This document shows, one piece after another, positions 74-19,285 of a DNA stretch of 19,383 nt. Below the pieces are notes generated by a model. The model saw nothing but the letters and a program-made list of their open reading frames with translations. It did no database searches and was not told the origin of the DNA. The stretch comes from a virus. Every line of letters starts with the position of its first letter. Position 1 is the first letter of the stretch. The DNA lies in UHGV virus genome UHGV-1344012. The stretch is one strand, 5' to 3'. Position numbers and translations under genes: made by a program.

Positions 74-1387
74 TTAACTTACTGATTTTAATAATCCTCC
101 CGTACTGCTCTCGTGGCTATGGGGCATCAATGGGGCAAAATCTGCCAGCTTCTGATTCAGCATTGCGATCTGCTCTGCGCTGCTGTCAGCCATCCATGCA
201 CCGTAAACATTGAACACCATCTGCGCGCTCGCATGCCCCATCTGACTGGCAATAAAACTCGGGTTTGCACCAGCAGATAATGACCAGCACGCATAGGTAT
301 GTCGTGACTGGTACGCCTTTCTGTGTCTGATCCCCGCGCGCTTTAGTGCAGCTTCCCATGAGTCGCCTACTGAATCGACCCGGTAGATAAATCCGACCTG
401 CTTACTGCGTCTGACCACATGCGGGTTAAAGACGAATGTACACTCATGGTTCACCGAACGACCGTACTCACGTAACTGCACTTCAATGTGATATTGCCTG
501 CCCAGCCTTGTCATTTCAGCCTGATTTTTCAGGATACTGATTGCGGGCTGGATAAGATGCACCACTCGATCTGTACTTGCCTCGGTTTTCGGTAGAGTGA
601 ACTCACCAAGTTTCGTATAATTACGCCTGACGGTAATTGTTCCCGCCTTCAGGTCGATATCTTCCCAGGCCAGGGAGACCAGTTCCCCGTGACGCATTCC
701 TGTGTACACTGCTAATGACCACAGGTTTTTCGTCTGCTGATGCCGGCATGCATCTATCAGGCGAATAAATTCATCACGAGACAGAGGATCTGGTTCTGCC
801 CTGGCTTTTTTCAGAGGTTTAATTCCCTCGAATGGGTTCACCTCTAAGTAACCGTGATCCGCAGCAAACTGAAACATTCCGGCCATTGTCGTCATGTAAT
901 AGTTCACAGTAACAACGCTTCGCCCTTTTGCCGGGGCTTTATTTTTCGTCGGACTCTGATAACCAGTTAGCAAATCTTTCCTAAGATACAGCAATTCCTC
1001 TTTGGTTACTGCTGACACCAGGCGATTACCTCCGATCCTCGGCACCATATTCCTTGCGACAGATTCATAGCGATTGAATGCGTTCGCGCAGATTTCCATC
1101 CGTTTCAGATCCAGCCATTTTTCTTCAAGTTCTTTCACTGTAATGTCTTTTTTACTTACACCAAAAGCCTTGAGGTTAGGGGAGTCAGGAAACTGGGTTG
1201 CATAATCAAAGGTTCCTGTGCGGATGGCAAAACATACTGATGTCCGCAGTTCCCCGGCTACCTTTCTGTTCTTAGCGGTGTCAGGGACACCGAGACTTTC
1301 CCTGACACGCTTACCTTTAAAATTAAACCAGATGCGTAATGTGCCACCGTGGTTTTCGACGCCTGTTGGATATGTGACTTTATCCAT
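74..1387 (-). CDS. int: Tyrosine-type site-specific integrase (phage integrase family)
   Basis: 437-aa ORF with a C-terminal region typical of tyrosine recombinases (...SRHTYACWSL..., downstream H/Y residues) and an N-terminal arm-binding-like region. Strong RBS (GGAGGT) upstream of ATG at 1385-1387; TAA stop at 74-76. Sits next to an excisionase-like gene. Confidence 0.9.
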   Translation of the reverse strand: MDKVTYPTGVENHGGTLRIWFNFKGKRVRESLGVPDTAKNRKVAGELRTSVCFAIRTGTFDYATQFPDSPNLKAFGVSKKDITVKELEEKWLDLKRMEICANAFNRYESVARNMVPRIGGNRLVSAVTKEELLYLRKDLLTGYQSPTKNKAPAKGRSVVTVNYYMTTMAGMFQFAADHGYLEVNPFEGIKPLKKARAEPDPLSRDEFIRLIDACRHQQTKNLWSLAVYTGMRHGELVSLAWEDIDLKAGTITVRRNYTKLGEFTLPKTEASTDRVVHLIQPAISILKNQAEMTRLGRQYHIEVQLREYGRSVNHECTFVFNPHVVRRSKQVGFIYRVDSVGDSWEAALKRAGIRHRKAYQSRHTYACWSLSAGANPSFIASQMGHASAQMVFNVYGAWMADSSAEQIAMLNQKLADFAPLMPHSHESSTGGLLKSVS

Positions 1388-1445
1388 TGGTGTTACCTCC
1401 AGACGCCCAAGAGCGATACGAGCTTACCTTTTTCATGGCATCAAA

Positions 1446-1682
1446 TCACCCTGGCTGCTTGCTTTTCATTGAAGCGACCCAGGCATCTACAGCCTTTCTG
1501 TTATACATGCACTCACTGGAAGGTTTGGGATTTCCGTCAGGCGATACGTGGATATACTCCCTCCCAATCATCCAGCATTCTTTTCTGGCACGGGTGATGG
1601 TTCCGGGTTTGAGCCCGGTAACCGCGATCAGAACGCTTTCACAAACCCAATCGTTGGGAGCTAACTGGAAAATATTGCTCAT
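1446..1682 (-). CDS. xis: Excisionase-like small DNA-binding protein
   Basis: 78-aa ORF immediately upstream of int on the same strand, with GGAG RBS 8 nt before ATG at 1680-1682. Size, position and sequence character (…LTGLKPGTITRARKECWMIGREYIH…) fit lambdoid Xis-like proteins; family recalled, not searched. Confidence 0.6.
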   Translation of the reverse strand: MSNIFQLAPNDWVCESVLIAVTGLKPGTITRARKECWMIGREYIHVSPDGNPKPSSECMYNRKAVDAWVASMKSKQPG

Positions 1683-1722
1683 AGTTATTTCTCCATTATC
1701 CCGGCTGCACCCGGGGAAAATT

Positions 1723-2301
1723 TTAGTTGTTGCTGGTGGTTGGGATTAGTTTCTGCCAAATCGCTGAAACATATTTCGCCTGGTGGCGGGCATCAGCCAG
1801 TGCGTTATGTGCAACCCCATCAAATGGCATATCACGCTTAGGATCGAAACCTACAACTCTGCCTAATGTGACGATGGTTCTGACGTCGTGATCATTCCAA
1901 AATTGCCACGGGCAAACCTGGCCGGCACGCTCATATGCGCCGCGCAATATAACGTTGTCGAAAGTAGCTCCATTGCCCCAAACTTTTAAATATTTAGGGT
2001 TATCAGAATGCCGATTAATGAAATGGCTCAGTTCAGATAGGGCAGATGATATCGGCATCGCATCATCAACACAGATTGCTGATCGTGCTTCTGAGCTTTG
2101 TCTTAACCACCACAGAATAGTGTCACCGTCCGGCACCGCTCCCTGCTCCATAGCGCTTTCAAGGTTAACGGCGCTGTAAAACTCCTGACCCAGTTCACCG
2201 CTTTGCGGATCGAAGAACACGGCACCTATGGAGACGATAGGGGCATTTGGTTTTTTGCCCATGGATTCGAGGTCGATCATTAAATTGTTCACGTTATACA
2301 T
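1723..2301 (-). CDS. DnaQ-like (DEDDh) 3'-5' exonuclease
   Basis: Exonuclease motifs visible: IDLESMG (Exo I, D-x-E), later acidic motif, and H-x4-D (HNALADA) near the C-terminus. Start placed at the internal ATG 2299-2301 (MYNVNNLMIDLE...) because it has an AGGAGAA RBS and abuts the stop of the upstream gene; the track ORF extends to 2493 by overlap. Confidence 0.75.
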   Translation of the reverse strand: MYNVNNLMIDLESMGKKPNAPIVSIGAVFFDPQSGELGQEFYSAVNLESAMEQGAVPDGDTILWWLRQSSEARSAICVDDAMPISSALSELSHFINRHSDNPKYLKVWGNGATFDNVILRGAYERAGQVCPWQFWNDHDVRTIVTLGRVVGFDPKRDMPFDGVAHNALADARHQAKYVSAIWQKLIPTTSNN

Positions 2302-3076
2302 TCTCCTGCTGCGGTGCTGCTGCCTGCTCAGCTGCCATAGCTGCATCGATTTGCTCACGTAATTTGGTCGCGTGATAATCGTCATCTTCATCCGTGATGG
2401 TCTGCGACCAGAAAATGCTATGGCTTCCGTAAACCATAGGCTCACGAACATCAACGGTTTTAGATACCAGCCAGTCCATGCGGAGTACGTCATCCGGAGT
2501 TACCGGAGAGTTGCCAGCCTGGAGAATAGATTTCAGCGCTGCCCTTGGCATTGCCGACCAGGCAAGGAATACGTCTGGCCTGTCGACATCTTCTGTCGGG
2601 AGAGTGTTTTCTATTTCGTCCAGCGCATCACTTAGCTTCTGAAATGCGTCGTCTGGAACAACGTGGCACTCTTCGCCATCAACATCTTGCTGACAGCTAT
2701 CATCTGCGAGTTCGAATGCGGCCCAGCAAACATTGAGCAGCATTTCAATAACGCGACGGTGTTCTGCTGTTACGCAATTCTCCGGCACTACCTGCGCTGG
2801 CGTGGCAGTGTAGAGCGGAATTACCGCATCTCCCATTGGCTGAGACAGGCACTTAAGGTGAAGATCACCCATCTTTGCATAAGCCAGAGTTTCCTCAGCG
2901 GCATAAAGCACAGGCTCAGCATTCAGGACTTCATCAATCACCTTGACAGCATCAGCCATTGCGTAGCCGAGATTACCGCCGTCACTTTGCGCTGCTGCTT
3001 TGCTGAGTATTTCGCTTATCTGGTGCAGGCGATCGAGTGATACAGGACCGTGCGCCGGGTGGTTGTTAGTTGTCAT
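2294..3076 (-). CDS. Hypothetical acidic phage early protein
   Basis: 260-aa ORF in the tightly packed leftward operon; its stop lies 2 nt from the exonuclease start. No motif recognised by eye. Confidence 0.6.
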   Translation of the reverse strand: MTTNNHPAHGPVSLDRLHQISEILSKAAAQSDGGNLGYAMADAVKVIDEVLNAEPVLYAAEETLAYAKMGDLHLKCLSQPMGDAVIPLYTATPAQVVPENCVTAEHRRVIEMLLNVCWAAFELADDSCQQDVDGEECHVVPDDAFQKLSDALDEIENTLPTEDVDRPDVFLAWSAMPRAALKSILQAGNSPVTPDDVLRMDWLVSKTVDVREPMVYGSHSIFWSQTITDEDDDYHATKLREQIDAAMAAEQAAAPQQENV

Positions 3077-3079
3077 GGG

Positions 3080-3265
3080 TTAGTCCCTCTCCACATTGAG
3101 AATGTCATCGTAATCATATTCAGTTTCATAACCGTCAGTGCCGAACAGAGTTACGACACCATCCTCTTCCCAGAACGTCTTCACTGTGTAACGTTTGCCG
3201 TGAAAGGTGATAACTACATCGCCAGGCTCAACGTCTTCTGCTCGAATTTTCAGTTTATCGACCAT
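3080..3265 (-). CDS. Small hypothetical protein (61 aa)
   Basis: Compact acidic ORF filling the gap between flanking genes in the operon, with stop/start spacing of 1-3 nt to its neighbours. Confidence 0.5.
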   Translation of the reverse strand: MVDKLKIRAEDVEPGDVVITFHGKRYTVKTFWEEDGVVTLFGTDGYETEYDYDDILNVERD

Positions 3266-3266
3266 C

Positions 3267-3920
3267 TCATTCCCCCTTCACGCCAATGCCAGCGGCGGCA
3301 CGTTCGGCTTCACTTTGTTCCCAAAACCACTTGTGAAGCGCCATAAGCTCTTCGTCAATCGGTGCATATTTGCGGTCAAAGTAGGCCTGAGCATCTTTCT
3401 CAGATTCGTCAGGCAATTCACCAGGCCCAAACAGCGTGTTATAAATCCATGCCAGTCCGCTCTTAGCGTCGCCAGTTGCCTGCCATTCGATAATCGCAGC
3501 CTGCATGACCAGAATGTTTTTCCCGATTAATAGGTCCAGTTCTTTGAACCGGTTGCGGATGTATGCATTCTCGCTTTGTAATTTTGCGTTGCGCTTCTCT
3601 GCGGCTTCTCTTCGGTTATTTGCACTATCGTACCGTTGCATCCATGACTTAATTTCAGCTTCAAGAAGGTCTTCCAGCTCCGCATTACGCTTGTCTTTAG
3701 TTTCCAGCTCATCCAGCAGCGCCAGCACAGTGGCGGGGTTGGATGCGGCGATGAATTCTGCATCAACCTTGAGGCAGTGCTGGGCGATTGCTTTTACCCC
3801 TACCTTGACCTCGTGGCCCCGCGCGCCTTTGTGTGGATGATATGATTCCCAACGGCCCCACGAGGCTTTGTTTGCTGCATCCGCCGTTTCACGCAGCGCC
3901 TGTTTGTTGATGTTGCTCAT
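3267..3920 (-). CDS. Hypothetical coiled-coil protein, possibly ead/Ea22-like
   Basis: 217-aa ORF with a central charged, helical segment (…NAELEDLLEAEIKSWMQRYDSANNRREAAEKRNAKLQSEN…). Start overlaps the upstream stop (translational coupling). Ea22-like assignment is from memory only. Confidence 0.55.
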   Translation of the reverse strand: MSNINKQALRETADAANKASWGRWESYHPHKGARGHEVKVGVKAIAQHCLKVDAEFIAASNPATVLALLDELETKDKRNAELEDLLEAEIKSWMQRYDSANNRREAAEKRNAKLQSENAYIRNRFKELDLLIGKNILVMQAAIIEWQATGDAKSGLAWIYNTLFGPGELPDESEKDAQAYFDRKYAPIDEELMALHKWFWEQSEAERAAAGIGVKGE

Positions 3921-4675
3921 TGTGCTGCCTCCTGGCGGTCTATGCGTTCAATTTCAGCCAGAATAAGCGCGCCAGCTTTCACCAGGTCACGGCGCGGGCC
4001 TGTCGGCTTCCACCATTCGGGTGCCCACGGCCAGTCCATCGGAATGCGGTTAAACGGCTGGATGGTGTTCAGGACGTAGCATGAGGATGCCCACAACAAC
4101 TGCGATTTTCCGTATTTGTCGTCATGCTCAGACGTCCAGCCCTCAACGGCTTTCTGCCGCTGGCGCTCTGCTATCACATCTAGAATTGCAGGATTGAACG
4201 TCCGCGCCTCCAGTTCTGCTATTTGATTCTCTGCTGCGTAGAGTTTGCGCTTCAGTTCTACGTTTTCCTCAGAAAGAGATACCGCTGCCTCCCAATTAAC
4301 GATCCCCTCATGGCAGGCCTCCTGATATGCCGTCAGCACAACATCAAACAGATTGCCATCCTGTAGCAGCTTAGCCAGTTCAGGCTTCCAGGCTACGCAG
4401 TCATCATCAGGGTCCTGCATGTTGTAGACGTAAGTATCAAAGGCACCCATCAAGCGCCCGAATCCACCTTTGTCGTCTACCAGCACTTGCCAGGCACGGA
4501 GAAGAAACAGTTTTTGATTACGATCTAAATCCGTCCGGGATAGTTCATCGGCGATAATGCTGATTTCACTACCGTGCCAGCGAGCGTCATTCCGTTGTGC
4601 CGCATGAAACAACTTCCAGAAATACTCGGTTTCTTCTTGGTCCGGGCGGCATTGCTTCAGTGTATGGACTGTCAT
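3917..4675 (-). CDS. Hypothetical protein with a C-terminal DUF550-like segment (tentative)
   Basis: 252-aa ORF; C-terminal W-rich segment (…EGWTSEHDDKYGKSQLLW…WPWAPEWWKPTGPRRDL…) resembles phage DUF550-type domains as recalled. ATGA overlap with the upstream gene. Confidence 0.55.
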   Translation of the reverse strand: MTVHTLKQCRPDQEETEYFWKLFHAAQRNDARWHGSEISIIADELSRTDLDRNQKLFLLRAWQVLVDDKGGFGRLMGAFDTYVYNMQDPDDDCVAWKPELAKLLQDGNLFDVVLTAYQEACHEGIVNWEAAVSLSEENVELKRKLYAAENQIAELEARTFNPAILDVIAERQRQKAVEGWTSEHDDKYGKSQLLWASSCYVLNTIQPFNRIPMDWPWAPEWWKPTGPRRDLVKAGALILAEIERIDRQEAAQ

Positions 4676-4998
4676 GCTGCACCGCCTTCAACGTTACGTA
4701 ACCAGATGCATACCGCGCCATCTTCGGTGTTGTGAATTGAACCGACAAACCAACCTTCACCGGCTGGCGATTCTGGCTGCCAGGCTGAAATATCGTAACC
4801 ATCAACTTCAGGATCGATGTCTTCTTCATCCCGGTAAACTACCGTCCATTCGAGGCCGTTTTTATCCAGCCAGGCGTTGAACTCATCAGGTGAGATAAAT
4901 TCACGACCATCGCAAAATTGCTCATAGACGGGGTGAGTCCANNNNNNNNNNTAGCCGTATTGGTCGCGTTCTACTGGTAATGCCGTAAATTTGCTCAT
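4672..4998 (-). CDS. Hypothetical protein (interrupted by a 10-nt N run)
   Basis: 108-aa ORF in operon context with overlapping stop/start to its neighbours; N run at 4942-4951 lies inside it, so the sequence and frame there are unverified. Confidence 0.45.
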   Translation of the reverse strand: MSKFTALPVERDQYGXXXXWTHPVYEQFCDGREFISPDEFNAWLDKNGLEWTVVYRDEEDIDPEVDGYDISAWQPESPAGEGWFVGSIHNTEDGAVCIWLRNVEGGAA

Positions 4999-5240
4999 TG
5001 GGCTGCTCCTTTGCGGACGTTTCGCAGAAGCTGGTTAAATATCAGCGTTAAGTTATTGCTGCATCCAAACGGCAGATCATTGACGCGGTATGTCGGTATC
5101 CCACCGCGTGCGCCAGACTTAACAATTCTCCCTGTTGCATAAAGCTGAGATAGTGCGCTGGCTACGGCTGGCGTCTTTTTACCCATCGCCCTTGCGATGG
5201 TGGCGTTCGGGTGGCCCTGGAGATATTCAAATACGGTCAT
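4995..5240 (-). CDS. Small hypothetical protein, possible winged-helix DNA-binding
   Basis: 81-aa ORF; start overlaps the stop of the upstream small ORF (ATGA-type overlap). Basic helical character suggests nucleic-acid binding, which is inference. Confidence 0.5.
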   Translation of the reverse strand: MTVFEYLQGHPNATIARAMGKKTPAVASALSQLYATGRIVKSGARGGIPTYRVNDLPFGCSNNLTLIFNQLLRNVRKGAAQ

Positions 5241-5404
5241 TGCGTTTTACCTTTACGTTCCTGTTCCAGTTGCGCCAATGATTCGGTTAATGCTGCGAAC
5301 GTAGCTTCAAGCCTGGTAGCGACTTCGCGCATAAGCGATGCATGCTTTGGTGGCAATTCAGCCACGGAGGCAAACGCCTCCGCCACGAGTTCTTTTACCT
5401 TCAT
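5237..5404 (-). CDS. Small helical ORF (55 aa), not in the ORF track
   Basis: Hand translation of the minus strand gives MKVKELVAEAFASVAELPPKHASLMREVATRLEATFAALTESLAQLEQERKGKTQ. Its ATG overlaps the stop of the HD gene and its TGA overlaps the ATG of the downstream gene, filling an otherwise unexplained 160-nt gap in a tightly coupled operon. Confidence 0.35.
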   Translation of the reverse strand: MKVKELVAEAFASVAELPPKHASLMREVATRLEATFAALTESLAQLEQERKGKTQ

Positions 5405-5940
5405 GCGGCGCATTGACGCTGCTCCATCAACTCATTAAAGCGATTTATGAACATGCCGTATGACTGGCCTGGACGAACTGGATTGATGATGAATAGGTCC
5501 GTCGGGACAACGCCATCGAGGCATGGCCACACGGAACCTTCGTCAATCTCAAAATCGCGGCGTTCGCTGGCGAGCATCACCAGATCGGCATATTTCACTG
5601 TTGGGTGTTGCTCCGTCGGTAGGCCAAATTTCTGGCGAATAGCAGCGTCTACGCGAGCTTCGATCACCTGGTAATCCGGTAACAGGCGCTTAAGCGGTGA
5701 GGGAATATCTTGCAGGTAGGCTTCGGCGGCATCATGAAGCAGTGCTTCTAAGGCAAACTCCTGCGGAACGAGATGGCTGGTTAAAACGCTATGCTGGCCG
5801 ACGCTGTAAAACTCAGGAAGATGCCCAGCAAAACGGCAGATATGAGACAGCGCAGTAGCAATATCCTCGATGACGATATCGTCCTGTTGGATATCGAGGT
5901 AATTAAAGTGTTTGCCGGATAATGTCTGAATGTAGCTCAT
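5401..5940 (-). CDS. HD-domain phosphohydrolase (YfbR/YfdR-like 5'-deoxynucleotidase family)
   Basis: Contains an HD motif (…LLHDAAEAY…) and upstream His residues typical of HD metal-dependent phosphohydrolases. Start set at ATG 5938-5940 (MSYIQTLSGKHF…) with GGAG RBS; the track ORF begins further upstream. Confidence 0.8.
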   Translation of the reverse strand: MSYIQTLSGKHFNYLDIQQDDIVIEDIATALSHICRFAGHLPEFYSVGQHSVLTSHLVPQEFALEALLHDAAEAYLQDIPSPLKRLLPDYQVIEARVDAAIRQKFGLPTEQHPTVKYADLVMLASERRDFEIDEGSVWPCLDGVVPTDLFIINPVRPGQSYGMFINRFNELMEQRQCAA

Positions 5941-6068
5941 GGTTTTCTCCATATTGGCGCGCTGCACCGCGCAGATTTTGGTTGCACGAATCCCTCGCCG
6001 GATGGCGATAATTAATGGAATTACGCTTCAATAAATCCCCGCGGCGCCGGGGATTTAATGCAGAGCAA

Positions 6069-6896
6069 TTAGGCTTTAAAGTTACCGATGAAAGTTTCCA
6101 CTGATTCACCGTCGAACTTGCTGATCAGTAAATCGCGGAATTCGTTGGCGATTGCTTCTTCCTGGGCTTCAAGTTGGACGATGCGCAGAACAAAGCAGGG
6201 TTCATCGCTGGTCAGCAGGCTGTTACGCAAGCTAAAGCGGCGTTCGCCCAGACCTTCATACGGCACACATTTGAATTCGAACGCTACCGGCATTACGTCT
6301 TTGCTGCTTGCTTCGACGCTTTGCATGAGTGATTTTTTACCAGCGAAATCACCAGTTTCATGATCCTGCTGGGTTGCTTGTTGGATAGTGATACGACGCA
6401 CGGCCTGAGCCGCCTGAGAAATCTCCATCGTCTTACCATCAGCGTCAAACGCCAGCAGGTAATCACTCCAGTCTTCCAGCCATTCAGCGATTTGCTTTTG
6501 TTTCAGACGCTGACCATCGATCTGTAGTAGCGCGCGAAACGGGGCGGTTTTCTTCAGAGTGATTGAAGCAACGTTATCGGCGTGACCGGGGTTATCCAGG
6601 GTGCCGATGTTGAACACTGAACGGGCGGTCATGTTGTCAGCGTCAATGAAGCAACGAGCTGGCTCGCTGGCGCTGGCATAACCTTTAGAATAACGTGCGA
6701 AGTCGTCAATACTGGTTGTGGTCATTGCGCCACGAAAGCGGAAACGTTCCAGAGAAAAGCGCTCAAGGCTTTCAACGCCAGTACCCTCTGGCAGTAATGC
6801 GGTCGGGCAAGCCAGGCCATGAATATCATTCAGGTGATAACCGGAAAGGACCAGGTCTTTGACCTGCTTGAAGGTGCCGCTGTCTAACTGAGACAT
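6069..6896 (-). CDS. DUF2303 family protein (YfdQ-like prophage protein)
   Basis: 275-aa ORF whose size, position next to the HD gene and sequence character match the YfdQ/DUF2303 family of CPS-53-like prophages as recalled; not verified by search. Confidence 0.65.
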   Translation of the reverse strand: MSQLDSGTFKQVKDLVLSGYHLNDIHGLACPTALLPEGTGVESLERFSLERFRFRGAMTTTSIDDFARYSKGYASASEPARCFIDADNMTARSVFNIGTLDNPGHADNVASITLKKTAPFRALLQIDGQRLKQKQIAEWLEDWSDYLLAFDADGKTMEISQAAQAVRRITIQQATQQDHETGDFAGKKSLMQSVEASSKDVMPVAFEFKCVPYEGLGERRFSLRNSLLTSDEPCFVLRIVQLEAQEEAIANEFRDLLISKFDGESVETFIGNFKA

Positions 6897-6952
6897 AAAA
6901 ATTCCTTATTAACTGATGATCAAAGTGGTATCAGTGAGTTTGTTGTTGCGGA

Positions 6953-7324
6953 TCACTGAGCCGCTTTAAGCTTTCCGTCCACCGCGCCGGTGATCCCGAA
7001 CAGTTGCCCCTGATCCTCCTGGAGGATGGTTAGCTTCCCGCCTTTGTTAACCCACATAGGGGTTTCGGTTGTGTCCTCTTCGGAGGCTTTACCGCGCGGG
7101 GTTGGGGTGCTGTAGTTCAGCTTGTGCTTGATCTTGACGCGCTTCTCTTCAACGGAATTACCCATACGCTCAAAATCAAAGGTGAGGACTACTTTGCCTT
7201 TGTTGCCGTTGTTCAGAACGCCAAGCGCGGTGGTGTTAAGTGCTGCCGCGATTTTGTTCATGAACACACCGGCATCCAGCTCGCCCAAAAAGTCGGGCAC
7301 TACGGTCATGCGGTCATTACTCAT
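6953..7324 (-). CDS. Hypothetical protein, first gene of the leftward early operon
   Basis: 123-aa ORF starting at ATG 7322-7324 with GAGGG RBS. The track ORF extends to 7603 only because a 10-nt N run (7347-7356) masks the upstream frame; that upstream part looks non-coding. Confidence 0.55.
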   Translation of the reverse strand: MSNDRMTVVPDFLGELDAGVFMNKIAAALNTTALGVLNNGNKGKVVLTFDFERMGNSVEEKRVKIKHKLNYSTPTPRGKASEEDTTETPMWVNKGGKLTILQEDQGQLFGITGAVDGKLKAAQ

Positions 7325-7486
7325 GGTTTTACCCTCGTTATGGCGGNNNNNNNNNNCTGCCACCGCCGAACTTTCTCCATACACAACAGAGAAGGGCACC
7401 TGCATTTGTCGGCGACTGCAATCGCTATCCTCTTGCCCGGGTGGATTGGGGAATGAGCCCGTCGCCCGGTGATGCCCTTGTCTCTT

Positions 7487-7878: not shown

Positions 7879-7945
7879 AATCTAACTTAACTTAGTTTTC
7901 TGGTCAAGTGAAAACATCAAACTAAACTTAGCTTGATGCTTAGAG
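7879..7945 (-). promoter_or_regulatory. Candidate pL promoter with OL operator cluster
   Basis: Minus-strand -35 TTGACC (complement of 7902-7907), 17-bp spacer, -10 TAGATT (complement of 7879-7884). Near-palindromes with CTAAG/CTTAG half-sites overlap it (ctaacttaacttag at 7882-7895; ctaaacttag at 7922-7931). Confidence 0.45.
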
Positions 7946-7961: not shown

Positions 7962-8588
7962 TTAGAGTTCGTACTGAACGCCTTTAACAACGCCAATAAT
8001 GAGGCAGTTACCATTGATCGGGATGTTGGGGTAGCGAGGATTTAGTGGCACTAAAAATTTTTGTGGGCCATCAATGACAAGTTTTTTAACAGTCGCTTCA
8101 TTAGTGCCATCAAGACGCGCAACCACAATCTTGCCATGAAGGGGTTCGGCATCTGGATCAACAATAACGGTTGCCCCTTCAGGGATTGTTGGGAGGCCAT
8201 TTGGATTGGTCATTGAATCCCCTTTGACCTCTAAAGCGAACGAGTTATCCCCAATGCGAAGTGATGTTTCAACCCATTTATCGACATCACTGAACAAATC
8301 AGCGGCTTTACATTCCGTGAACTGCCCAGCTTGAACCCATGAAATCACCGGGACACGCCTCATTTTAGTTATGAGGGTGCCTTCAAATTCAGTGCCGTAA
8401 AGAATGTAATCTATTGATGTGTTAAAGAATTTCGCCAGCTTAACCAGCGATTCACCGTTTGGGATATTCACATCCTTTTCCCAATAACCCACCGCTACGT
8501 CACTAACCCCGCAGAACTTACCCAGTTCTTTTTGAGAGGTTCTTGTAACCCTACGTAGGGCTTTAATGCGCTGACCAACCGTTTCCAT
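7962..8588 (-). CDS. cI: CI-type prophage repressor (P22 C2-like; N-terminal HTH, C-terminal S24 LexA-like peptidase)
   Basis: 208-aa ORF with an N-terminal HTH (…QKELGKFCGVSDVAVGYWEK…) and C-terminal S24 catalytic dyad context (…EVKGDSMTNP… Ser; …EATVKKLV… Lys). Divergent from cro across an operator-rich intergenic region. Confidence 0.9.
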   Translation of the reverse strand: METVGQRIKALRRVTRTSQKELGKFCGVSDVAVGYWEKDVNIPNGESLVKLAKFFNTSIDYILYGTEFEGTLITKMRRVPVISWVQAGQFTECKAADLFSDVDKWVETSLRIGDNSFALEVKGDSMTNPNGLPTIPEGATVIVDPDAEPLHGKIVVARLDGTNEATVKKLVIDGPQKFLVPLNPRYPNIPINGNCLIIGVVKGVQYEL

Positions 8589-11196: not shown

Positions 11197-11253
11197 NNNN
11201 NNNNNNNNNNNNNNNNNNNNNNNNNNNNNNNNNNNNNNNNNNCCCAATTTGCC

Positions 11254-11961
11254 GTGGGAAGAACGCAAACTGATGCGGCGCCGGAGCTGGACGCTGAGGT
11301 AGTGCCGGAGAAATCAGAGGCAGAACTGCCATTAACCCAAAAAGCCATTCTGGAAACCAGCGGTGTAGAGGCTTGGGCCTGTGTTGTCGCGGCGGTCGGC
11401 AAGAAAGACGAGTACACCTTCAGCGCGTCAAAGTTTGGTCATACCTGGGCTGCCGACTCTCTGGAAAACCCTGAATTTACCAATGTTTCACCGCTGACGA
11501 TCGACAGAGCGAAAAAGCTGATCAGCGAGAGCATCCTGGTGGGTGTTAATGCATGGCTGGAAACATTGCCCTTTGATAGCGATGACGTGAAACAAGACAT
11601 GTCAGAGCGGTTACGCACGGTTGCCGTTGAGTCTGCGAAAGAATACGGCATTAACCACAGTGAATTCATCGCGACCATGGAAAGCCTGGATAAAGCCAAA
11701 TGGTCAAATATTCGGGGGATCCGCGCCCATGTCCGTGAGACGCAGGAATCAAAGGACAAGGCGTTAAACGAATCGCGCGTTTGGCCTCTTGAGGTTGGAC
11801 TGGTGTTTAACCAGATTGAAGGGGCTGACGCTCTACCTGTTTCGCAGCAGAACAAGCTGAAAGCCAACATCAATCAACTCTGGCTGGAACGAACGGCCAC
11901 CAGCGAAATCATTACTGCCGCTTCTGAACTTGTTCGCAATATGCGGGGAGAGGCCGCGTGA
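11254..11961 (+). CDS. Hypothetical protein (true start unresolved because of the upstream N run)
   Basis: 235-aa ORF from the first in-frame GTG after the gap; the real start may lie within the gap. Its stop overlaps the rusA start. No motif recognised. Confidence 0.5.
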   Translation: MGRTQTDAAPELDAEVVPEKSEAELPLTQKAILETSGVEAWACVVAAVGKKDEYTFSASKFGHTWAADSLENPEFTNVSPLTIDRAKKLISESILVGVNAWLETLPFDSDDVKQDMSERLRTVAVESAKEYGINHSEFIATMESLDKAKWSNIRGIRAHVRETQESKDKALNESRVWPLEVGLVFNQIEGADALPVSQQNKLKANINQLWLERTATSEIITAASELVRNMRGEAA

Positions 11962-12344
11962 AACTGATCCTGCCTTTTCCTCCGAGCGTGAACACTTACT
12001 GGCGCGCCCCTAATAAGGGGCCGCTGGCCGGTCGTCACCTCATTAGCGCTGATGGTCGTAAATACCAGAGCGCTGCCTGCGTGGCGATCATTGAGCAATT
12101 ACGACGTCTCCCGAAGCCATCGACTGAACTGGCAGCGGTTGAAATCACTCTGTACCCGCCGGATGCGCGCCGCCGGGATATCGATAATTACAACAAAGCC
12201 CTGTTTGACGCGCTGACGCATGCGGGTGTCTGGGAAGACGACAGCCAGATTAAGCGCATGCTGGTGGAATGGGGACCCGTAGTGCCGAAAGGTCGGGTAG
12301 AGATAACGATCAGCAGATATGAACCGGCGGGTGCAGCCGCCTGA
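11958..12344 (+). CDS. rusA: RusA-family Holliday junction resolvase
   Basis: 128-aa ORF with RusA-like conserved residues (…RRRDIDNYNKALFDALTHAGVWEDDSQI…) and typical lambdoid nin-region position. Confidence 0.85.
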   Translation: MKLILPFPPSVNTYWRAPNKGPLAGRHLISADGRKYQSAACVAIIEQLRRLPKPSTELAAVEITLYPPDARRRDIDNYNKALFDALTHAGVWEDDSQIKRMLVEWGPVVPKGRVEITISRYEPAGAAA

Positions 12345-13041: not shown

Positions 13042-14033
13042 GAGCTCTGCTTACCCCCGAGATCGCCCATCGTATGGGGATTGTGCTGTTCCGTCCCGGT
13101 ACGGAACTGATGCACCTCTTCATGCGTGGTCGCGTTCTGCTCGAGCCTGAACCAGAAGAAATGGCGTCATTCAGTACCGGGGCTGTTCCGGCAGCCATTC
13201 AGCCGCTAGCTGATGATCCGGTAATGCGTCAGGTCTTCGAGAATGAGAGGGTTATTCAGCGTGCCGGTGGGCTTCCTTCCCTTGAGCAATGGTTGAGTAA
13301 TCGGTTTGAATGCCAGTGGCCACATTCAACGTGGCACGACAAGAACTTCACAACAATGCGGCACCCACCAGGAAGTATTCGCCTGTGCTGGCATTGCGAT
13401 CACACTTTGTCGGGGCAGCATACCGAACAGCTTGCAGGTATAGCGGCCGGAAACCTGGTATCCTGGATTCTGGAAGTCATTCGGCGTGATTCTGGTTTTC
13501 CCGAGTCGCATATCCTGACGCTTCCTGAACTGTGCTGGTGGATGGTCAGAAACGACCTGGCTGATGTTATTCCGGAAAGCGTTGCGCACAAAGGGTTGCG
13601 CCTTCCGGATGAGAAGATCCGTTCTGTCATGAGGGAAAGCGACATAGTGCCTTCCTCGTCAGCAACCAGACTCGTGCAGGAGAAGGCGAAGAAGATCCTC
13701 ACGCTCTCTGTTGATCCGGAGTCGCCAGAGTCTTTTATGCTCAGGCCAAAACGTCGCCGCTGGATAAATGAGACGTACACCCGCTGGGTTAAAACACAAC
13801 CCTGTGAGTGTTGCCGACGGCCAGCAGATGATCCGCACCATATCGTAGGGCACGGTATGGGTGGTACAGCAACAAAAGCCCATGACCTCTTCGTGATCCC
13901 TCTGTGCAGAGAGTGCCACGACGAGTTACACGCCGATGTACCAGCATTCGAGCAGAAGCATGGTACGCAGCTTGAGCTGCTACTGCGTTTTATTGATCGA
14001 GCACTGGCGATCGGCGTAATTGCGACAGCTTAA
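13038..14033 (+). CDS. DUF968 family protein (YdfU-like), Cys/His-rich C-terminus
   Basis: 331-aa ORF starting at GTG 13038 (GTGA overlap with the upstream stop; AGGGGG RBS). C-terminal Cys/His cluster (…CECCRRPADDPHHIVGHG…CRECHDELH…) and position just upstream of Q match YdfU-like proteins as recalled. Confidence 0.6.
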   Translation: MRALLTPEIAHRMGIVLFRPGTELMHLFMRGRVLLEPEPEEMASFSTGAVPAAIQPLADDPVMRQVFENERVIQRAGGLPSLEQWLSNRFECQWPHSTWHDKNFTTMRHPPGSIRLCWHCDHTLSGQHTEQLAGIAAGNLVSWILEVIRRDSGFPESHILTLPELCWWMVRNDLADVIPESVAHKGLRLPDEKIRSVMRESDIVPSSSATRLVQEKAKKILTLSVDPESPESFMLRPKRRRWINETYTRWVKTQPCECCRRPADDPHHIVGHGMGGTATKAHDLFVIPLCRECHDELHADVPAFEQKHGTQLELLLRFIDRALAIGVIATA

Positions 14034-14049
14034 GAAGTATGGAGACCGT

Positions 14050-14880
14050 ATGAATCTGGACAATGTTTTAAAGTTTTTTGCGCCTAAAGGCATGCACATC
14101 TCAGATACCAGCAGAGCGACAGCAAGTGAGCAACTTACTGTGACTGATGTAATGGCTGCACTGGGGATGACTCAGGCTGATGCAGGCATCGGGCTGGCAA
14201 TGTTTCTAGGTAAAGCTGGTATCAGCAGCAAGGACAGGGAGATGTCAATTGCCTGGCTAACGGAGTACGCGAAAGAGCATGCGCCCATGGCTATTCGTAA
14301 AGCATCAGGGAAAAAGTTTCCCCTCTGCATGCGTATCCTTGCCCGGTTTGCCTATAACGATTATTCCTCATCAGCAGCTGATTGTGTGGCATGCCCAAAA
14401 TGTAGTGGTAAAGGGTTGCTTACAACCACTAAAACCGTGACTAAAAGCCATTACACAATGCGATTGCCACAATGGGCAAAAGACCTGAGACAGTCACCAT
14501 CTGACTTTGAGGTAAAGCGAGAAGTAACTGACTCCGAGCAAAGTTTATGTTCGCGATGCCATGGTACCGGAAAGTTAAGTAAGCGATGCCAGTGTGGCGG
14601 AACTGGCAAGACGGTTGACCGTAAAGCGACAGAACTGCAGGGCGTACCAGTTTACAAAGAATGTAAGCGCTGCGAAGGGCGGGGATACAGCAGGCCAAAA
14701 TCATCGGTTGCCTATCGAGGTGTTTTTTCTGAGTTGCCGAGTCTGCCTGACCGAACGTGGCGTTATAGCTGGAAACCATTCTATGAAAGCCTGGTGACCA
14801 AATGTTTCCAGGAGGAGAGTTATTCAAGCTCTCAACTGAATCGGGTGACTAAAAGTGAAGATGTGATAAATATCGCGTAA
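14050..14880 (+). CDS. Late-gene antiterminator Q-like protein (phage 82 Q / QuuQ-type, Zn-finger-like), copy 1
   Basis: Start set at ATG 14050 (MNLDNVLKFF…) with GGAG RBS, by alignment to the paralog at 17269. Cys-rich motifs (CPKCSGKG; CSRCHGTGK…CQCGGTGK; CKRCEGRG). Followed immediately by a consensus-like promoter and intrinsic terminator, the classic Q-pR'-tR' arrangement. Confidence 0.7.
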   Translation: MNLDNVLKFFAPKGMHISDTSRATASEQLTVTDVMAALGMTQADAGIGLAMFLGKAGISSKDREMSIAWLTEYAKEHAPMAIRKASGKKFPLCMRILARFAYNDYSSSAADCVACPKCSGKGLLTTTKTVTKSHYTMRLPQWAKDLRQSPSDFEVKREVTDSEQSLCSRCHGTGKLSKRCQCGGTGKTVDRKATELQGVPVYKECKRCEGRGYSRPKSSVAYRGVFSELPSLPDRTWRYSWKPFYESLVTKCFQEESYSSSQLNRVTKSEDVINIA

Positions 14881-14923
14881 TTTAGCGTCATGATGTTTGC
14901 AATGTTGCCGTATTTGTGTATAT

Positions 14924-14951
14924 TTGACATCAATGATGGGCTTTGTATAAC
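14924..14951 (+). promoter_or_regulatory. Candidate late promoter pR' (Q utilisation region)
   Basis: -35 TTGACA (14924-14929), 16-bp spacer, -10 TATAAC (14946-14951), located 44 nt after the Q1 stop. The predicted start site falls in the N run at 14958-14974. Confidence 0.5.
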
Positions 14952-14979
14952 TATCGANNNNNNNNNNNNNNNNNGATAA

Positions 14980-15002
14980 CCTCACCTCGGTGGGGTTTTT
15001 TT
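14980..15002 (+). terminator. Intrinsic terminator (tR'-like) downstream of pR'
   Basis: Hairpin CCTCAC-CTCG-GTGGGG (one G-U pair) followed by seven T (14996-15002). Confidence 0.6.
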
Positions 15003-15013
15003 ATGGTGATAGT

Positions 15014-15550
15014 ATGGAACTGACTAAAGAAAATGTTGCATTAATTGCTGCTTTGGGGATTTTTGTGGGTACATTGATAACTTCTCTTACAAGTTACCTC
15101 CAGAACAGTAGTAGGCAGTCGCATGAGTGGCGCTCAGAAAGAAATAGAAGGAAAATTGAAAAGGGTGAACAGCTTTATGAGGCATTAATACTTTATAAAA
15201 AATTGCTTTTTGCCAATCATATGAGCTGGATAAATTGTATTGATGGGTGTTTTAAATCTGAGGACATTGGCGATAAATCAGACGAAATTCTCAGTAAAAA
15301 CCCTGAGTATAAAGGAGTTGGTGATAGAATTATTTTAATCTCTGGTGTTTATTTTCCTGAGATTAGCGTTATGTTTGATGAATCTAGAAAATTGCTGAAA
15401 CCAGCCAATTCTGTTTTCTTCAAAATACAGTCAGGTGAAGTTGACGATAAGAAGTTGGCGAAGAATATAATTCTAAACGCTGGTCATAATTTTGATAAGG
15501 AGGCTAATAAAATGTTGGACTGTTTATCGAAAGAGATTAGATCGTTGTAA
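15014..15550 (+). CDS. AT-rich cargo (moron) gene: membrane-anchored protein of unknown function
   Basis: 178-aa ORF from ATG 15014 (MELTKENV…) with one N-terminal hydrophobic helix (ALIAALGIFVGTLITSLTSYL) and a Lys/Glu-rich soluble domain. Visibly much more AT-rich than the flanking phage genes; bracketed by two intrinsic terminators. The track's GTG start at 14990 lies inside the terminator hairpin. Confidence 0.6.
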   Translation: MELTKENVALIAALGIFVGTLITSLTSYLQNSSRQSHEWRSERNRRKIEKGEQLYEALILYKKLLFANHMSWINCIDGCFKSEDIGDKSDEILSKNPEYKGVGDRIILISGVYFPEISVMFDESRKLLKPANSVFFKIQSGEVDDKKLAKNIILNAGHNFDKEANKMLDCLSKEIRSL

Positions 15551-15568
15551 CAACTCAAAATTAACGAA

Positions 15569-15592
15569 GGTCACCAGATGGTGGCCTTTTTT
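15569..15592 (+). terminator. Intrinsic terminator after the cargo gene
   Basis: Hairpin GGTCACC-AGAT-GGTGGCC (one G-U pair) followed by TTTTTT (15587-15592), then TATT. Confidence 0.6.
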
Positions 15593-15638
15593 ATTCCCCT
15601 CGTTCTGAGAGGACTCACAGCAATAAAGAGGGGGCTAA

Positions 15639-16025
15639 ATGTCCGATCCGATTTCCGGTACTGGGCTGGCTGGTGGTGTCCTGACGGGAGCTAGCGTCTA
15701 TGGATTTCTGTCCGGAACCGATTACGGCGTGGTGTTTGGCGCATTTGCCGGAGCTGTATTTTACATTGCAACAGCTGCGGACCTTAGTGCAACGCGTCGG
15801 CTGGCGTATTTTGTCGTGTCCTACATCGCCGGGATCATCTGCTCAGGGCTGGTGGGTTCAAAGCTGGCTGACTGGACTGGTTACAGTGATAAGCCTCTGG
15901 ATGCCATCGGTGCCGTAATCGTTTCGGCTTTAGCTGTCAAAATCCTGACGTTCCTGAATAACCAGGATGTCGGCTCTTTGGTGGCGCTGATAACGCGCCG
16001 GGGAGGTTCTGGTGGTACTAAATGA
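15639..16025 (+). CDS. Holin-like membrane protein (about 4 predicted TM segments)
   Basis: 128-aa Gly/Ala-rich ORF with several hydrophobic stretches, GAGGGGG RBS, first gene of the lysis cassette upstream of the endolysin. Confidence 0.6.
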   Translation: MSDPISGTGLAGGVLTGASVYGFLSGTDYGVVFGAFAGAVFYIATAADLSATRRLAYFVVSYIAGIICSGLVGSKLADWTGYSDKPLDAIGAVIVSALAVKILTFLNNQDVGSLVALITRRGGSGGTK

Positions 16026-16293
16026 CCCATCGGCAACAATCAACGCTCTTCTATGCGTCGGGGTGGTGATTACCCTGATGTTTTATCGTCGTGGTGATTC
16101 ACGCCATCGTCCGTGGGTTTCGCGTTTAGCCTGGCTAATTACTGTCACGTACAGCGCTGTGCCTCTGGCCTACCTGTGCGGGATTTATCCTCATTCGTCA
16201 TGGGCCACTATTGGGGCCAACATTATTTTCCTTTCCGTGCTAGTGGCCGTCAGAGGCAACGTTGCGCGCCTGGTTGATCATCTGAGGCACTAA
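16012..16293 (+). CDS. Second holin-like membrane protein (3 predicted TM segments)
   Basis: 93-aa ORF starting at GTG 16012 with GGGAGG RBS 5 nt upstream; overlaps the end of the preceding gene and ends at the endolysin start (TAATG). Three hydrophobic helices. Confidence 0.5.
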   Translation: MVLNDPSATINALLCVGVVITLMFYRRGDSRHRPWVSRLAWLITVTYSAVPLAYLCGIYPHSSWATIGANIIFLSVLVAVRGNVARLVDHLRH

Positions 16294-16907
16294 TGAACCA
16301 ATCACAATTTCAAAAGGCGGCTGGCATTAGCGCCGGGTTAGCTGCGCGCTGGTTTCCGCACATTGATGCTGCAATGAAAGAGTTTGGAATCACAGCAGTT
16401 AACGATCAGGCCATGTTCATTGCACAAGTTGGGCATGAATCTGCTGGTTTTACCTCGCTGGTGGAAAGCTTCAACTACTCGGTAGACGGGCTGAAGAAAA
16501 CCTTTAGTAAACGCCTGACGCCTTATCAGTGTGAAATGCTGGGGCGTGTCGATGGTAAGCAGGTAGCCCACCAGCCGCAAATAGCCAATCTGGTTTATGG
16601 TGACCGCATGGGGAATAACAGCCAGGGTGACGGCTGGAAATATCGCGGTCGTGGCCTGCTGCAAATCACTGGTCGTGAGAACTACACCAAATGCGGTACG
16701 GCGCTGAAGCTTGACCTTGTGAGCACTCCGGAACTATTGACGCAAGAGCGACACGCGGCCCGTTCGGCGGCATGGTACTTCACGTTACGCGGTTGTCTCC
16801 TCTATTCGGGGGATGTGGAACGCGTCACGCAGATTATTAACGGCGGGCAGAACGGCATTAAAGACCGCCGTGAACGTTACGCCAAAGCTAAAGCCGCACT
16901 GGTGTGA
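16293..16907 (+). CDS. Endolysin, glycoside hydrolase family 19 (chitinase-like lysozyme)
   Basis: 204-aa ORF with GH19-like conserved regions (…QAMFIAQVGHESAGFTSLVESFNYS…, …GWKYRGRGLLQITGRENY…) as in Salmonella/E. coli phage GH19 endolysins; follows the holin-like genes. Confidence 0.8.
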   Translation: MNQSQFQKAAGISAGLAARWFPHIDAAMKEFGITAVNDQAMFIAQVGHESAGFTSLVESFNYSVDGLKKTFSKRLTPYQCEMLGRVDGKQVAHQPQIANLVYGDRMGNNSQGDGWKYRGRGLLQITGRENYTKCGTALKLDLVSTPELLTQERHAARSAAWYFTLRGCLLYSGDVERVTQIINGGQNGIKDRRERYAKAKAALV

Positions 16908-17268: not shown

Positions 17269-18101
17269 ATGAAACTTGAAGCTTCACTAAAACACTTTAG
17301 CCCTCAGGGTATGCACATCAGCGACGACGTGAAAGGAACCTCTCCGGACCGCCTTACAGGAACAGATGTAATGGCGGCAATTGGCACCACCANNNNNNNN
17401 NNNNNNNNNNNNNNNNNNNNNNNNNNNNNNNNNNNATCAGCAAAACGGATGAACAGCTCGCAGTTCAGGCGCTGGCGCGATATGCGATGGATGTCGCACC
17501 GAAGAATGTTCGCAAAGCAGCTGGTGGGCAGTTCGGATGGTGCATGCAGATGTTGGCACAATTTGCCTTTGCTGATTATTCACGTTCGGCGGCTACAAGC
17601 GTGACGTGTCACAGCTGCAGTGGTACCGGACGAACAACCCGCGAACAGATTACCCGCAAGGTTTCGTACCCATGGGGTAAAGCTCCATACTGGGCCTGCC
17701 GCTCTCGTGCTGTTCGACCGTCTGACTGGGAGCAGTGGATGGAGGTAACAGAGGTTGTACCGGCGGTCTGTGATGCTTGCGAAGGCAAGGGAACGATCAG
17801 CGCCCGTTGTCGTTGCGGCGGTAAAGGCGAGGTTCTAGACCGCAAGGCCACAAGCGAGCGCGGCGCGCCGGTGTTTAAAACCTGCGAGCGCTGCAGCGGA
17901 AATGGATTTTCTGCGGTGCCGTCTACCGCAGCCTATAAAGTGATACTGAAGCGCGTTCCGGATCTGCACGTCAGAACATGGACTCGCAACTGGAAACCGT
18001 TTCTTGAGGCGCTGGTAAGCATTTGTCAGCAGGAGGAGGGAAACGCCGCAAGAGAATTTCAATCTGCAACCAGTTTAGGCGAAGAAGGTGACGAAATTTA
18101 G
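17269..18101 (+). CDS. Second Q-like antiterminator paralog (interrupted by a 43-nt N run)
   Basis: N-terminus (MKLEASLKHFSPQGMHISD…TGTDVMAAIG) and C-terminal Cys-rich region (CHSCSGTG…; CDACEGKG…CRCGGKG…; CERCSGNG; …RTWTRNWKPF…) align with Q1. Span is not a multiple of 3, so the N run (17393-17435) does not reflect true length. GAGGG RBS before ATG 17269. Confidence 0.65.
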
Positions 18102-18190
18102 CATTATTACGACATAAGGCTTGATTTTGTCCGAAGTTGTCGTGTATGCTTCTAATCATGCGGAGTAACGCCTGAAAGATTTCAACAATA

Positions 18191-18211
18191 AGCCCCTTGC
18201 GGGGCTTTTTT
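18191..18211. terminator. Bidirectional intrinsic terminator between Q2 and the convergent orphan gene
   Basis: Perfect hairpin AGCCCC-TTGC-GGGGCT followed by a T-tract on the plus strand and preceded by an A-rich run (T-rich for the minus-strand transcript). The minus-strand gene's stop codon (18210-18212) overlaps the T-tract. Confidence 0.65.
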
Positions 18212-19160: not shown

Positions 19161-19285
19161 ATCTTCCCTTGCTCTGGTTAGATTGAAAGCACTGCCGCTT
19201 GATATTTAACCATTTCCCTGATTGTTTTTCATCATAAAACCATATTATTGCAAGGGTAGTTTTACCTATGTATCTTCTTGCTCCC

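Follow-up and report, generated by a model that had tools for sequence, protein, structure and literature searches.

The 19,383-nt window, by which is meant the whole stretch of DNA analysed here, is the early region of an Escherichia coli lambdoid prophage, running from the int-xis end to Q and the lysis genes, and the last gene of its leftward early operon encodes what is, on its sequence, an intact DEDDh 3'-5' exonuclease of the DexA/Rv2179c family. By gene content and gene order, the prophage itself belongs to the LLS type of phage, which is lambdoid and possesses no recombination module of its own. The most likely reading, to which we give about even confidence, is that the phage depends on RecBCD and that the exonuclease serves it in an accessory role, trimming the 3' ends of DNA. 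The missing module is already known as a property of the class, where it is compensated by Chi sites and host RecBCD, and the window bears that signature. The element is in this sense an ordinary one, with a known enzyme family placed in a known genome arrangement that was described in 2025.

The window follows the lambdoid architecture, with int-xis at one end and, beyond the early-left genes, the repressor, cro, a cII-like gene, replication genes, RusA, Q and the lysis genes, and with no gene of a recombination module among them. A tyrosine integrase gene (74..1387, minus strand) marks the prophage end. It is followed by the gene of a DUF1233-type excisionase (1446..1682, minus strand; PF06806, 3.7e-32; phrog_539), which lies 40 nt downstream of the exonuclease stop codon. 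Over positions 1400-3200 the window is matched at 100% identity by a RefSeq E. coli chromosome, which has the same genes annotated beside a yecE-type (DUF72) insertion site; in the identical relative with this yecE-type insertion (L001), the integrase is annotated as a tyrosine-type recombinase beside the DUF72 gene. The exonuclease gene (1723..2292, with an alternative start at 2301, minus strand; PF16473, phrog_255) is the last of the leftward early operon before xis-int. Upstream of it on the same strand is ORF260 (2294..3076), encoding a variable Ea-type accessory protein without a Pfam or NCBIfam family, and then two Ead/Ea22-like genes (3267-3920 and 3917-4675, together spanning 3267..4675), the first of which matches PF13935 (1.6e-20) and the second only PHROGs that Ea22-type proteins also match. 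Several small or Ea22-type genes in all sit between ORF260 and the gene for an HD-domain deoxyribonucleoside 5'-monophosphate phosphatase like YfdR and T5 Dmp (5401..5967, minus strand; phrog_318, 3.7e-98), for which the YfbR-like Pfam match is weak and under the gathering cutoff. The operon further contains the genes for YfdQ (DUF2303; 6069..6896, minus strand; PF10065, 1.9e-65) and for a YfdP-like protein (6953..7324, minus strand; phrog_204, 1e-41), the LLS counterpart of the latter being annotated as a member of the yfdP family. A candidate pL-like promoter, found as a consensus match only (7879..7907, minus strand; TTGACC-17-TAGATT, 9/12 consensus positions), precedes the gene for a CI/LexA-type repressor with helix-turn-helix and S24 peptidase domains (7962..8588, minus strand; PF01381, PF00717). 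Read from 7907 to 7879, this candidate would drive the early-left operon, and a consensus scan found no promoter-like site nearer the exonuclease. A RusA Holliday-junction resolvase is encoded in the early-right, nin-like region (11958..12344, plus strand; PF05866, 4.3e-16).

The first-pass annotation had proposed a DnaQ-like 3'-5' exonuclease in the early-left region, and on this Pfam, PHROGs and the alignment with DexA agree. The ORF matches PF16473, the "Rv2179c-like 3'-5' exoribonuclease" family of Pfam, along its full length (profile positions 1-177 of 177; E 1e-74; 250.5 bits, with a cutoff of 27), and PHROG 255, "exonuclease", at 3e-90. The Pfam family founder, Rv2179c, is described as an RNA exonuclease, which leaves a DNA substrate short of certain. 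The predicted catalytic DEDDh set consists of D10 and E12 in the D-x-E of Exo I, D115 in Exo II, and H165 and D170 in the H-x4-D of Exo III (192-aa numbering). All five residues are invariant across six homologues, i.e. in an alignment of the window protein with five phage homologues, and in T4 DexA (PDB 8KEL/8KEN) it is catalytic residues that align with them; both the DexA residues and the identity of the two entries as the T4 exonuclease DexA are documented (PMC12153337). The two DexA entries were the only solved structures found by PDB sequence search (E about 3e-10), making DexA the best solved-structure match by sequence, with the equivalent of its W152 conserved alongside the DEDDh residues. 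Despite this likeness, the two proteins are only about 27% identical (tblastn, T-even phage genomes). DexA is a 227-aa protein of a lytic phage, whereas the window protein has 189 aa, belongs to a temperate phage and lacks the DexA loops, and the equivalents of D90 and D169 are not conserved in it. Two starts are available to the gene, a GTG at 2292 that gives 189 aa and an ATG at 2301 that gives 192 aa. The GTG is probably the true start, because it is the one called by RefSeq in the 100%-identical prophage, yields the MNNLMIDLE N-terminus of the homologues, and lies 1 nt after the ORF260 stop. RefSeq names the protein "3'-5' exonuclease" in that E. coli prophage, and the same catalogued entry is present in hundreds of enterobacterial prophages.

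It had also been claimed that no recognisable annealing protein or lambda-Exo-type nuclease lies nearby, and this proved correct. In Pfam, PHROGs and NCBIfam scans of all early-left ORFs (1446-7324), none matched Red-beta, RecT, Erf, Sak, Sak4, YqaJ/lambda-Exo, RecE, SSB, Gam or Abc2. Similarly, no family match to an anti-RecBCD protein (Gam, GamL, Abc2 or MuGam) was found in the window with Pfam and PHROGs, GamL and MuGam being looked for there through family libraries only. The exonuclease is not immediately adjacent to an SSB, a Rad52-type annealing protein or Abc2, all three being absent from the window. The further claim, that the gene occupies the place where lambdoid phages usually carry their recombination module, does not hold. 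Counted from int, the lambda order is int, xis, ea8.5, ea22, three small ORFs and then exo-bet-gam; the window exonuclease abuts xis and has Ea-type neighbours, which is the lambda ea8.5 position at the ea8.5/ea22 end and not that of exo-bet-gam. The slot beside the repressor is taken by YfdP, YfdQ and the HD phosphatase. Among the 80 IMG/VR contigs whose exonuclease shares at least 80% identity with that of the window, most end 1-4 kb past the gene, and thus the gene typically lies near the prophage end. The observation itself is accordingly confirmed, and the interpretation first placed on it is supported in part.

The arrangement has a published precedent in phage LLS, which is the prototype of the lambdoid phages that are devoid of a Rec module and rich in Chi (Zheng, Casjens, Davidson, Amundsen, Smith, Genome Res 2025; PMC12315714). 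Within the panel of lambdoid phages from Enterobacteriales examined in that study, 68 of 314 were without a recombination module, most of them with many Chi sites on the top strand, and these sites let host RecBCD supply recombination in such phages. The same authors noted sporadic DnaQ-type nuclease genes very near int and outside any module, and did not count them as module genes (PMC12315714). The LLS gene 34, annotated "DnaQ-like exonuclease," encodes a protein 86% identical to the window exonuclease. LLS and the window share the order repressor-YfdP-YfdQ-HD phosphatase-...-exonuclease-xis-int, the lack of any annealing protein, nuclease, SSB or anti-RecBCD gene at the module position, and the strong enrichment of Chi on the top strand; the gene order recurs in Eeyore, mEp460, phiSTEC1575-Stx2k and Lys8385Vzw. 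LLS differs from the window in its integrase and attachment site, and also in which Ea-type genes separate the HD phosphatase from the exonuclease. It is also without a recombination gene in the nin region (PMC12315714), whereas the window has RusA in its right arm. Further marks of the LLS class are a clustering of Chi sites towards the right end of the genome and growth that RecBCD enhances; as the window does not include genome ends, the Chi likeness rests on number and strand.

Thirteen Chi sites (GCTGGTGG) were counted in the 19.4 kb of the window, between 1732 and 17527. Ten are on the plus strand (1732, 8946, 9103, 12260, 12411, 13534, 15669, 15848, 16457 and 17520) and three on the minus strand (11136, 11897 and 16568). 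The expectation from dinucleotide-preserving shuffles (n=200) is 0.66, and not one of the 200 shuffles reached 13. The plus strand of the window is the equivalent of the lambda top strand, for which the class criterion is at least four Chi sites. With its DNA loaded with Chi, mostly on one strand, and with RusA encoded in the right arm, the phage most likely hands recombination over to host RecBCD and RecA.

The relatives of the exonuclease fall into two contexts, which were compared using two sets of 80 IMG/VR contigs: a window-type set with the exonuclease at least 80% identical, and an epsilon34-type set whose exonuclease is about 60% identical to the window protein. The ORFs of both sets were searched by phmmer (E below 1e-5) with seeds from the window, lambda, Rac, epsilon34, Vibrio phage H188 and one related prophage; the seed set did not contain GamL, MuGam, P22 Erf or Sak, and its Sak4 seed was the AAA_24 protein of H188. 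In the epsilon34-type set, a Rad52-type annealing protein was found in 70/80 loci, SSB in 79/80 and Abc2 in 71/80, with the full trio within 3 kb of the exonuclease in 66/80. The corresponding window-type counts are 1/80, 0/80 and 1/80, and the annealing protein and Abc2 come from one and the same locus (L058), which has a P22-like Rec module. Conversely, the HD phosphatase (74/80), YfdQ (59/80), YfdP (56/80) and RdgC (12/80, never together with YfdQ) occur among the window-type loci, and each was found in 0/80 of the epsilon34-type loci. Homologues of the lambda Exo, Bet and Gam, RecT and RecE seeds were found in none of the 160 loci. Chi sites divide the sets in the same way, for the window-type contigs hold 429 and 117 on their two strands in 0.98 Mb and the epsilon34-type contigs 12 and 2 in 1.0 Mb, where about 15 per strand per 1 Mb are expected by chance. 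The epsilon34 gp34 protein is of the same family and length as the window protein, with about 60% identity and the same catalytic residues. Its gene differs from the window gene, which adjoins xis, in standing beside SSB, usually between the Rad52-type annealing protein and Abc2, in genomes with no Chi enrichment. The first-pass annotation had made its reading depend on whether a standard annealing protein next door has this exonuclease as its usual partner. The window provides no such neighbour, but the 60%-identical sister clade does, with a Rad52-type protein, SSB and Abc2 adjacent. The phages of the window-type clade are close relatives of one another, and common ancestry, not function, may account for the occurrence of their exonuclease in genomes that are rich in Chi and devoid of a Rec module.

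As an accessory nuclease, the enzyme would remove nucleotides from the 3' ends of DNA, with a chemistry that is probably the same as that of its 60%-identical relatives inside Rad52-type/SSB/Abc2 modules. It would most plausibly aid recombination or replication that depends on host RecBCD, and its trimming of 3' tails may, to judge from genetic context, provide ends onto which RecBCD can load. It would not stand in for lambda Red or RecET, and would have no dedicated partner next door. The contexts in which the family recurs are those of recombination at DNA ends. In epsilon34 and phiKp_30, a member is found inside annealing-protein/SSB/Abc2 modules; in Vibrio phage H188, one belongs to a replication/recombination cluster along with a Sak4-type ATPase, a Cas4-like nuclease and a helicase. 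Phage Tritos presents a fusion, an 823-aa protein encoded right before xis-int, in which a RecE scaffold ends in a C-terminal DEDDh domain with 57% identity to the window protein. The middle region of the Tritos protein is 40% identical to RecE 278-591 (E 2e-62), and the DEDDh domain occupies the place that the nuclease domain has in RecE. Compared with this "exonuclease VIII" of the Rac RecE/Tritos kind, the window protein is a bare DEDDh domain, whereas that of Tritos carries the RecE middle region; in true RecE the nuclease domain is of another kind, with 5'-3' polarity, and RecT is encoded alongside. T4 DexA, for its part, acts in intron homing and in the scavenging of host DNA (PMC12153337). 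From the recurrence of such contexts, a 3'-end exonuclease acting on DNA is taken as the likely activity. Weighing against a contribution to recombination, 3'-5' single-strand exonucleases usually lower rather than promote it (PMC12315714).

Both lambdoid contexts among the 160 contigs keep host RecBCD in use, one via Chi sites and the other via Abc2. A more specific proposal is that the DexA-type exonuclease is a phage factor working with host RecBCD, one that removes 3' tails and so prepares phage DNA ends onto which the host enzyme can load on its way to Chi. In this narrower form the proposal is unlikely; if true, a RecBCD-helper exonuclease would add to host-dependent phage recombination an accessory step not recognised before.

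Two rivals to an accessory role in RecBCD-dependent recombination are each decidedly improbable. The first is that the enzyme serves in superinfection exclusion or defence as a nuclease of the "HREX" kind, which would protect the lysogen by digesting DNA that contains 5-hydroxymethylcytosine, as that of infecting T-even phages does, while leaving unmodified DNA intact. The model is EcD, an E. coli homologue of DexA that digested T4 5hmC DNA in vitro and protected cells when supplied from a plasmid (Kang et al., NAR 2025; PMC12153337). The window protein is of the same family as DexA and EcD. The DexA residue W152, which recognises 5hmC, is conserved as W135 and is invariant in the homologue alignment, and the tetramer residue D90 of DexA is replaced by Ser86, as expected for a dimer-only, EcD-like enzyme; these equivalences, and that of D169, rest on an alignment to DexA of roughly 27% identity. 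However, D169 aligns with Val149, with Asp153 nearby, and the LLS and mEp460 homologues retain Asp at the D90 position. Furthermore, the gene is start/stop-coupled within a repressor-controlled leftward operon and has no promoter-like site of its own, and therefore its expression in the lysogen is not expected.

The EcD gene was recovered from the published primers in six IMG/VR contigs (L095-L100), by a search with the forward primer lengthened to take in the conserved ETxG motif; it encodes 189 aa with Ala78, as reported (PMC12153337). The reverse primer alone gave one match, a chance one. Like the window enzyme, EcD is a stand-alone 189-aa member of the family encoded in a prophage early operon. 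It is, however, only 36-37% identical to the window protein, and it resides in a P2-like and not a lambdoid prophage, with a Dam-type methylase gene and not xis-int for a neighbour. Its location in the early operon of a P2-like prophage makes the label of "bacterial defence gene" doubtful for EcD, and cautions against treating the published "bacterial" EcD as a host defence gene. A PADLOC scan for defence-system membership gave the window protein only a marginal DEDDh match (2e-4), and literature searches turned up no further studies of HREX or of DnaQ-like exonucleases in prophages. A defence role for the window exonuclease is thus possible, if weakly supported.

The second rival, just as doubtful, places the exonuclease in a module for DNA degradation and the nucleotide pool, in which it would free dNMPs from host or competitor DNA for the HD phosphatase to dephosphorylate. 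Such a module may be likened to scavenging by T4 DexA and to the A1/Dmp pair of phage T5. The HD phosphatase is found upstream in 74/80 loci and is retained even where RdgC replaces YfdP/YfdQ, but this co-occurrence is confined to one set of syntenic relatives, and the HD gene is missing from at least five loci that have the exonuclease, among them L058 with its P22-like Rec module instead. The name of PHROG 318, deoxyribonucleoside 5'-monophosphate phosphatase, fits the proposed chemistry, as does the dATP/dGTP pyrophosphohydrolase domain in the commonest upstream neighbour among relatives; the role of DexA in scavenging host DNA is likewise documented (PMC12153337). Against this, no endonuclease to open host DNA is evident, and a temperate phage that needs host RecBCD and host replication gains little by destroying host DNA. 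In addition, the E. coli K-12 yfdQRST cluster slows the initiation of replication, and the one YfdR tested binds DnaA and acts in this way instead (PMC4776307).

It is less probable still, and by our estimate very unlikely, that the enzyme is an RNA exonuclease like Rv2179c, with RNAs of the host or the phage, or the small nucleic-acid signals of defence systems, as the molecules it would trim or destroy. The Pfam family is named after a 3'-5' exoribonuclease, many database entries say exoribonuclease, and there is a weak match (2e-4) to a CRISPR-associated DEDDh model in PADLOC. The closest studied or solved relatives by sequence are nonetheless the DNA exonucleases DexA and EcD, Rv2179c was not retrieved in the PDB sequence search, and the conserved gene contexts are all ones of DNA recombination or replication.

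The remaining proposal follows from the suggestion, made at first, of an unrecognised partner among the neighbouring proteins: a cryptic Rec module with the exonuclease as its nuclease arm and ORF260, an Ea22-like protein, YfdQ or YfdP as its annealing protein. The ORF260 stop does lie 1 nt before the exonuclease start, in start/stop coupling, the epsilon34-type sister clade does sit beside an annealing protein, and YfdQ, YfdP and ORF260 are without assigned functions. Nevertheless, no neighbour matches an annealing-protein family in Pfam, PHROGs or NCBIfam, and ORF260-like matches occur in only 25/80 of the relatives' loci. The gene immediately upstream of the exonuclease varies, being ORF260, DUF551, DUF550/PF04447 or tgt-like, with the DUF550 domain (dATP/dGTP pyrophosphohydrolase) in the commonest of these neighbours, and such variation between relatives makes a hidden fixed partner unlikely. 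ORF260 homologues have about the first 195 residues in common and differ in their C-termini (e.g., DUF551, DUF550). When 28 representatives of the unassigned upstream ORFs (140 aa or longer) of the 80 relatives were scanned with Pfam, none matched an annealing-protein, YqaJ or SSB family. Alignments of YfdQ and ORF260 compared by hhalign with Bet, RecT, Rad52-type proteins, Sak4, lambda Exo and RecE gave probabilities of at most 3%, and the same limit applied to SSB, Gam, Abc2 and RdgC. The AF2 model of YfdQ (pLDDT 73, pTM 0.62) had no neighbour in a fold search of the PDB (best E 0.024, TM below 0.2), and the only BFVD matches of its predicted fold were phage proteins that are either unnamed or themselves DUF2303. 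For ORF260 the AF2 model is poor (pLDDT 45, pTM 0.25), and the structure accordingly says nothing on this protein. The idea of an annealing protein among the neighbours was rejected on the negative outcomes of the Pfam, PHROGs, NCBIfam and PADLOC scans, the hhalign comparisons and the YfdQ fold searches. DUF2303 also occurs with RecT and YqaJ in Burkholderia phage JC1, and the yfdP/yfdQ/phosphatase cluster was judged unlikely to be a hidden module by Zheng et al. because ArgO145 carries this yfdPQR cluster alongside a complete Rec module (PMC12315714). A dedicated or cryptic partner encoded next door is thus unlikely and largely refuted, and the cryptic module is the least credible of all the readings, with very little probability left to it.

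In itself, the finding adds little to what is known of these phages, as the 2025 description of the class already covers both the missing module and the stray nuclease of DnaQ type near int. What the comparison does bring out is a clean split of one exonuclease family into two clades, one residing inside annealing-protein/SSB/Abc2 modules and one standing alone in phages that are rich in Chi and devoid of Rec genes. This split offers a simple handle on how phages that depend on host recombination process their DNA ends.

In phage Tritos, the gene directly preceding xis-int encodes an 823-aa 'exonuclease VIII' (L094:6084-8555), the C-terminal part of which is the DEDDh domain. The middle region of this protein shares 40% identity with residues 278-591 of Rac RecE, and no RecT accompanies it. 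The Tritos protein looks like a RecE scaffold with a swapped nuclease domain. EcD is the E. coli DexA homologue published as a bacterial anti-T4 nuclease, 'HREX'. Its gene sits within the early operon of P2-like prophages (L099:5679-6269 and L100:6401-6991), flanked by small early genes on one side and a Dam-type methylase on the other, and the natural ORF seems to begin MNHLMIDTET, upstream of the MIDTET start that was used for cloning.

Among the 80 relatives, in which the exonuclease is at least 80% identical to that of the window, the repressor-adjacent slot is filled by YfdP and YfdQ in 59 (window 6069-7324) and by RdgC in 12 (compared at L001:23484-24401, in a related E. coli prophage). 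The two versions never occur together in this set, and the downstream HD phosphatase is present with either. The fold of YfdQ/DUF2303 (6069-6896) is uncharacterised, since its AlphaFold2 model (pLDDT 73) matched nothing beyond further DUF2303 proteins and phage proteins without a name, and found no neighbour among the solved structures searched.

The right arm of the window has a holin-holin-GH19 endolysin cassette (15639-16907) with a Q-type antiterminator gene on either side (14020-14880 and 17487-18101); in the L001 prophage, a second lysis cassette follows that prophage's own second Q gene. GC content falls to about 0.40 at 14500-15600 and 18000-19200, versus 0.50-0.54 elsewhere. The first patch holds an ORF (14990-15550, plus strand) with no family match and the second an ORF (18210-19160, minus strand) matching phrog_7003, of unknown function; these patches with their ORFs look like morons. 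Five N runs break the window, lying within a 108-aa ORF (4942-4951), upstream of YfdP (7347-7356), within an adenine methyltransferase gene (11197-11242), between the first Q gene and the ORF at 14990-15550 (14958-14974), and within the second Q gene (17393-17435).

Among the relatives, the gene found most often directly upstream of the window-type exonuclease (L054:8861-9997 and 26 further loci within L011-L090) bears a PF04447 dATP/dGTP pyrophosphohydrolase (DUF550) domain, which together with the HD phosphatase lends the operon end a nucleotide-metabolism flavour. The PADLOC DpdH model matches residues 104-204 of an Ea22-like protein (window 3267-3920; 1.8e-36), and phage Eeyore has, immediately upstream of its exonuclease, a gene annotated as queuine tRNA-ribosyltransferase. 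This could be a hint of a connection with 7-deazaguanine DNA-modification systems.
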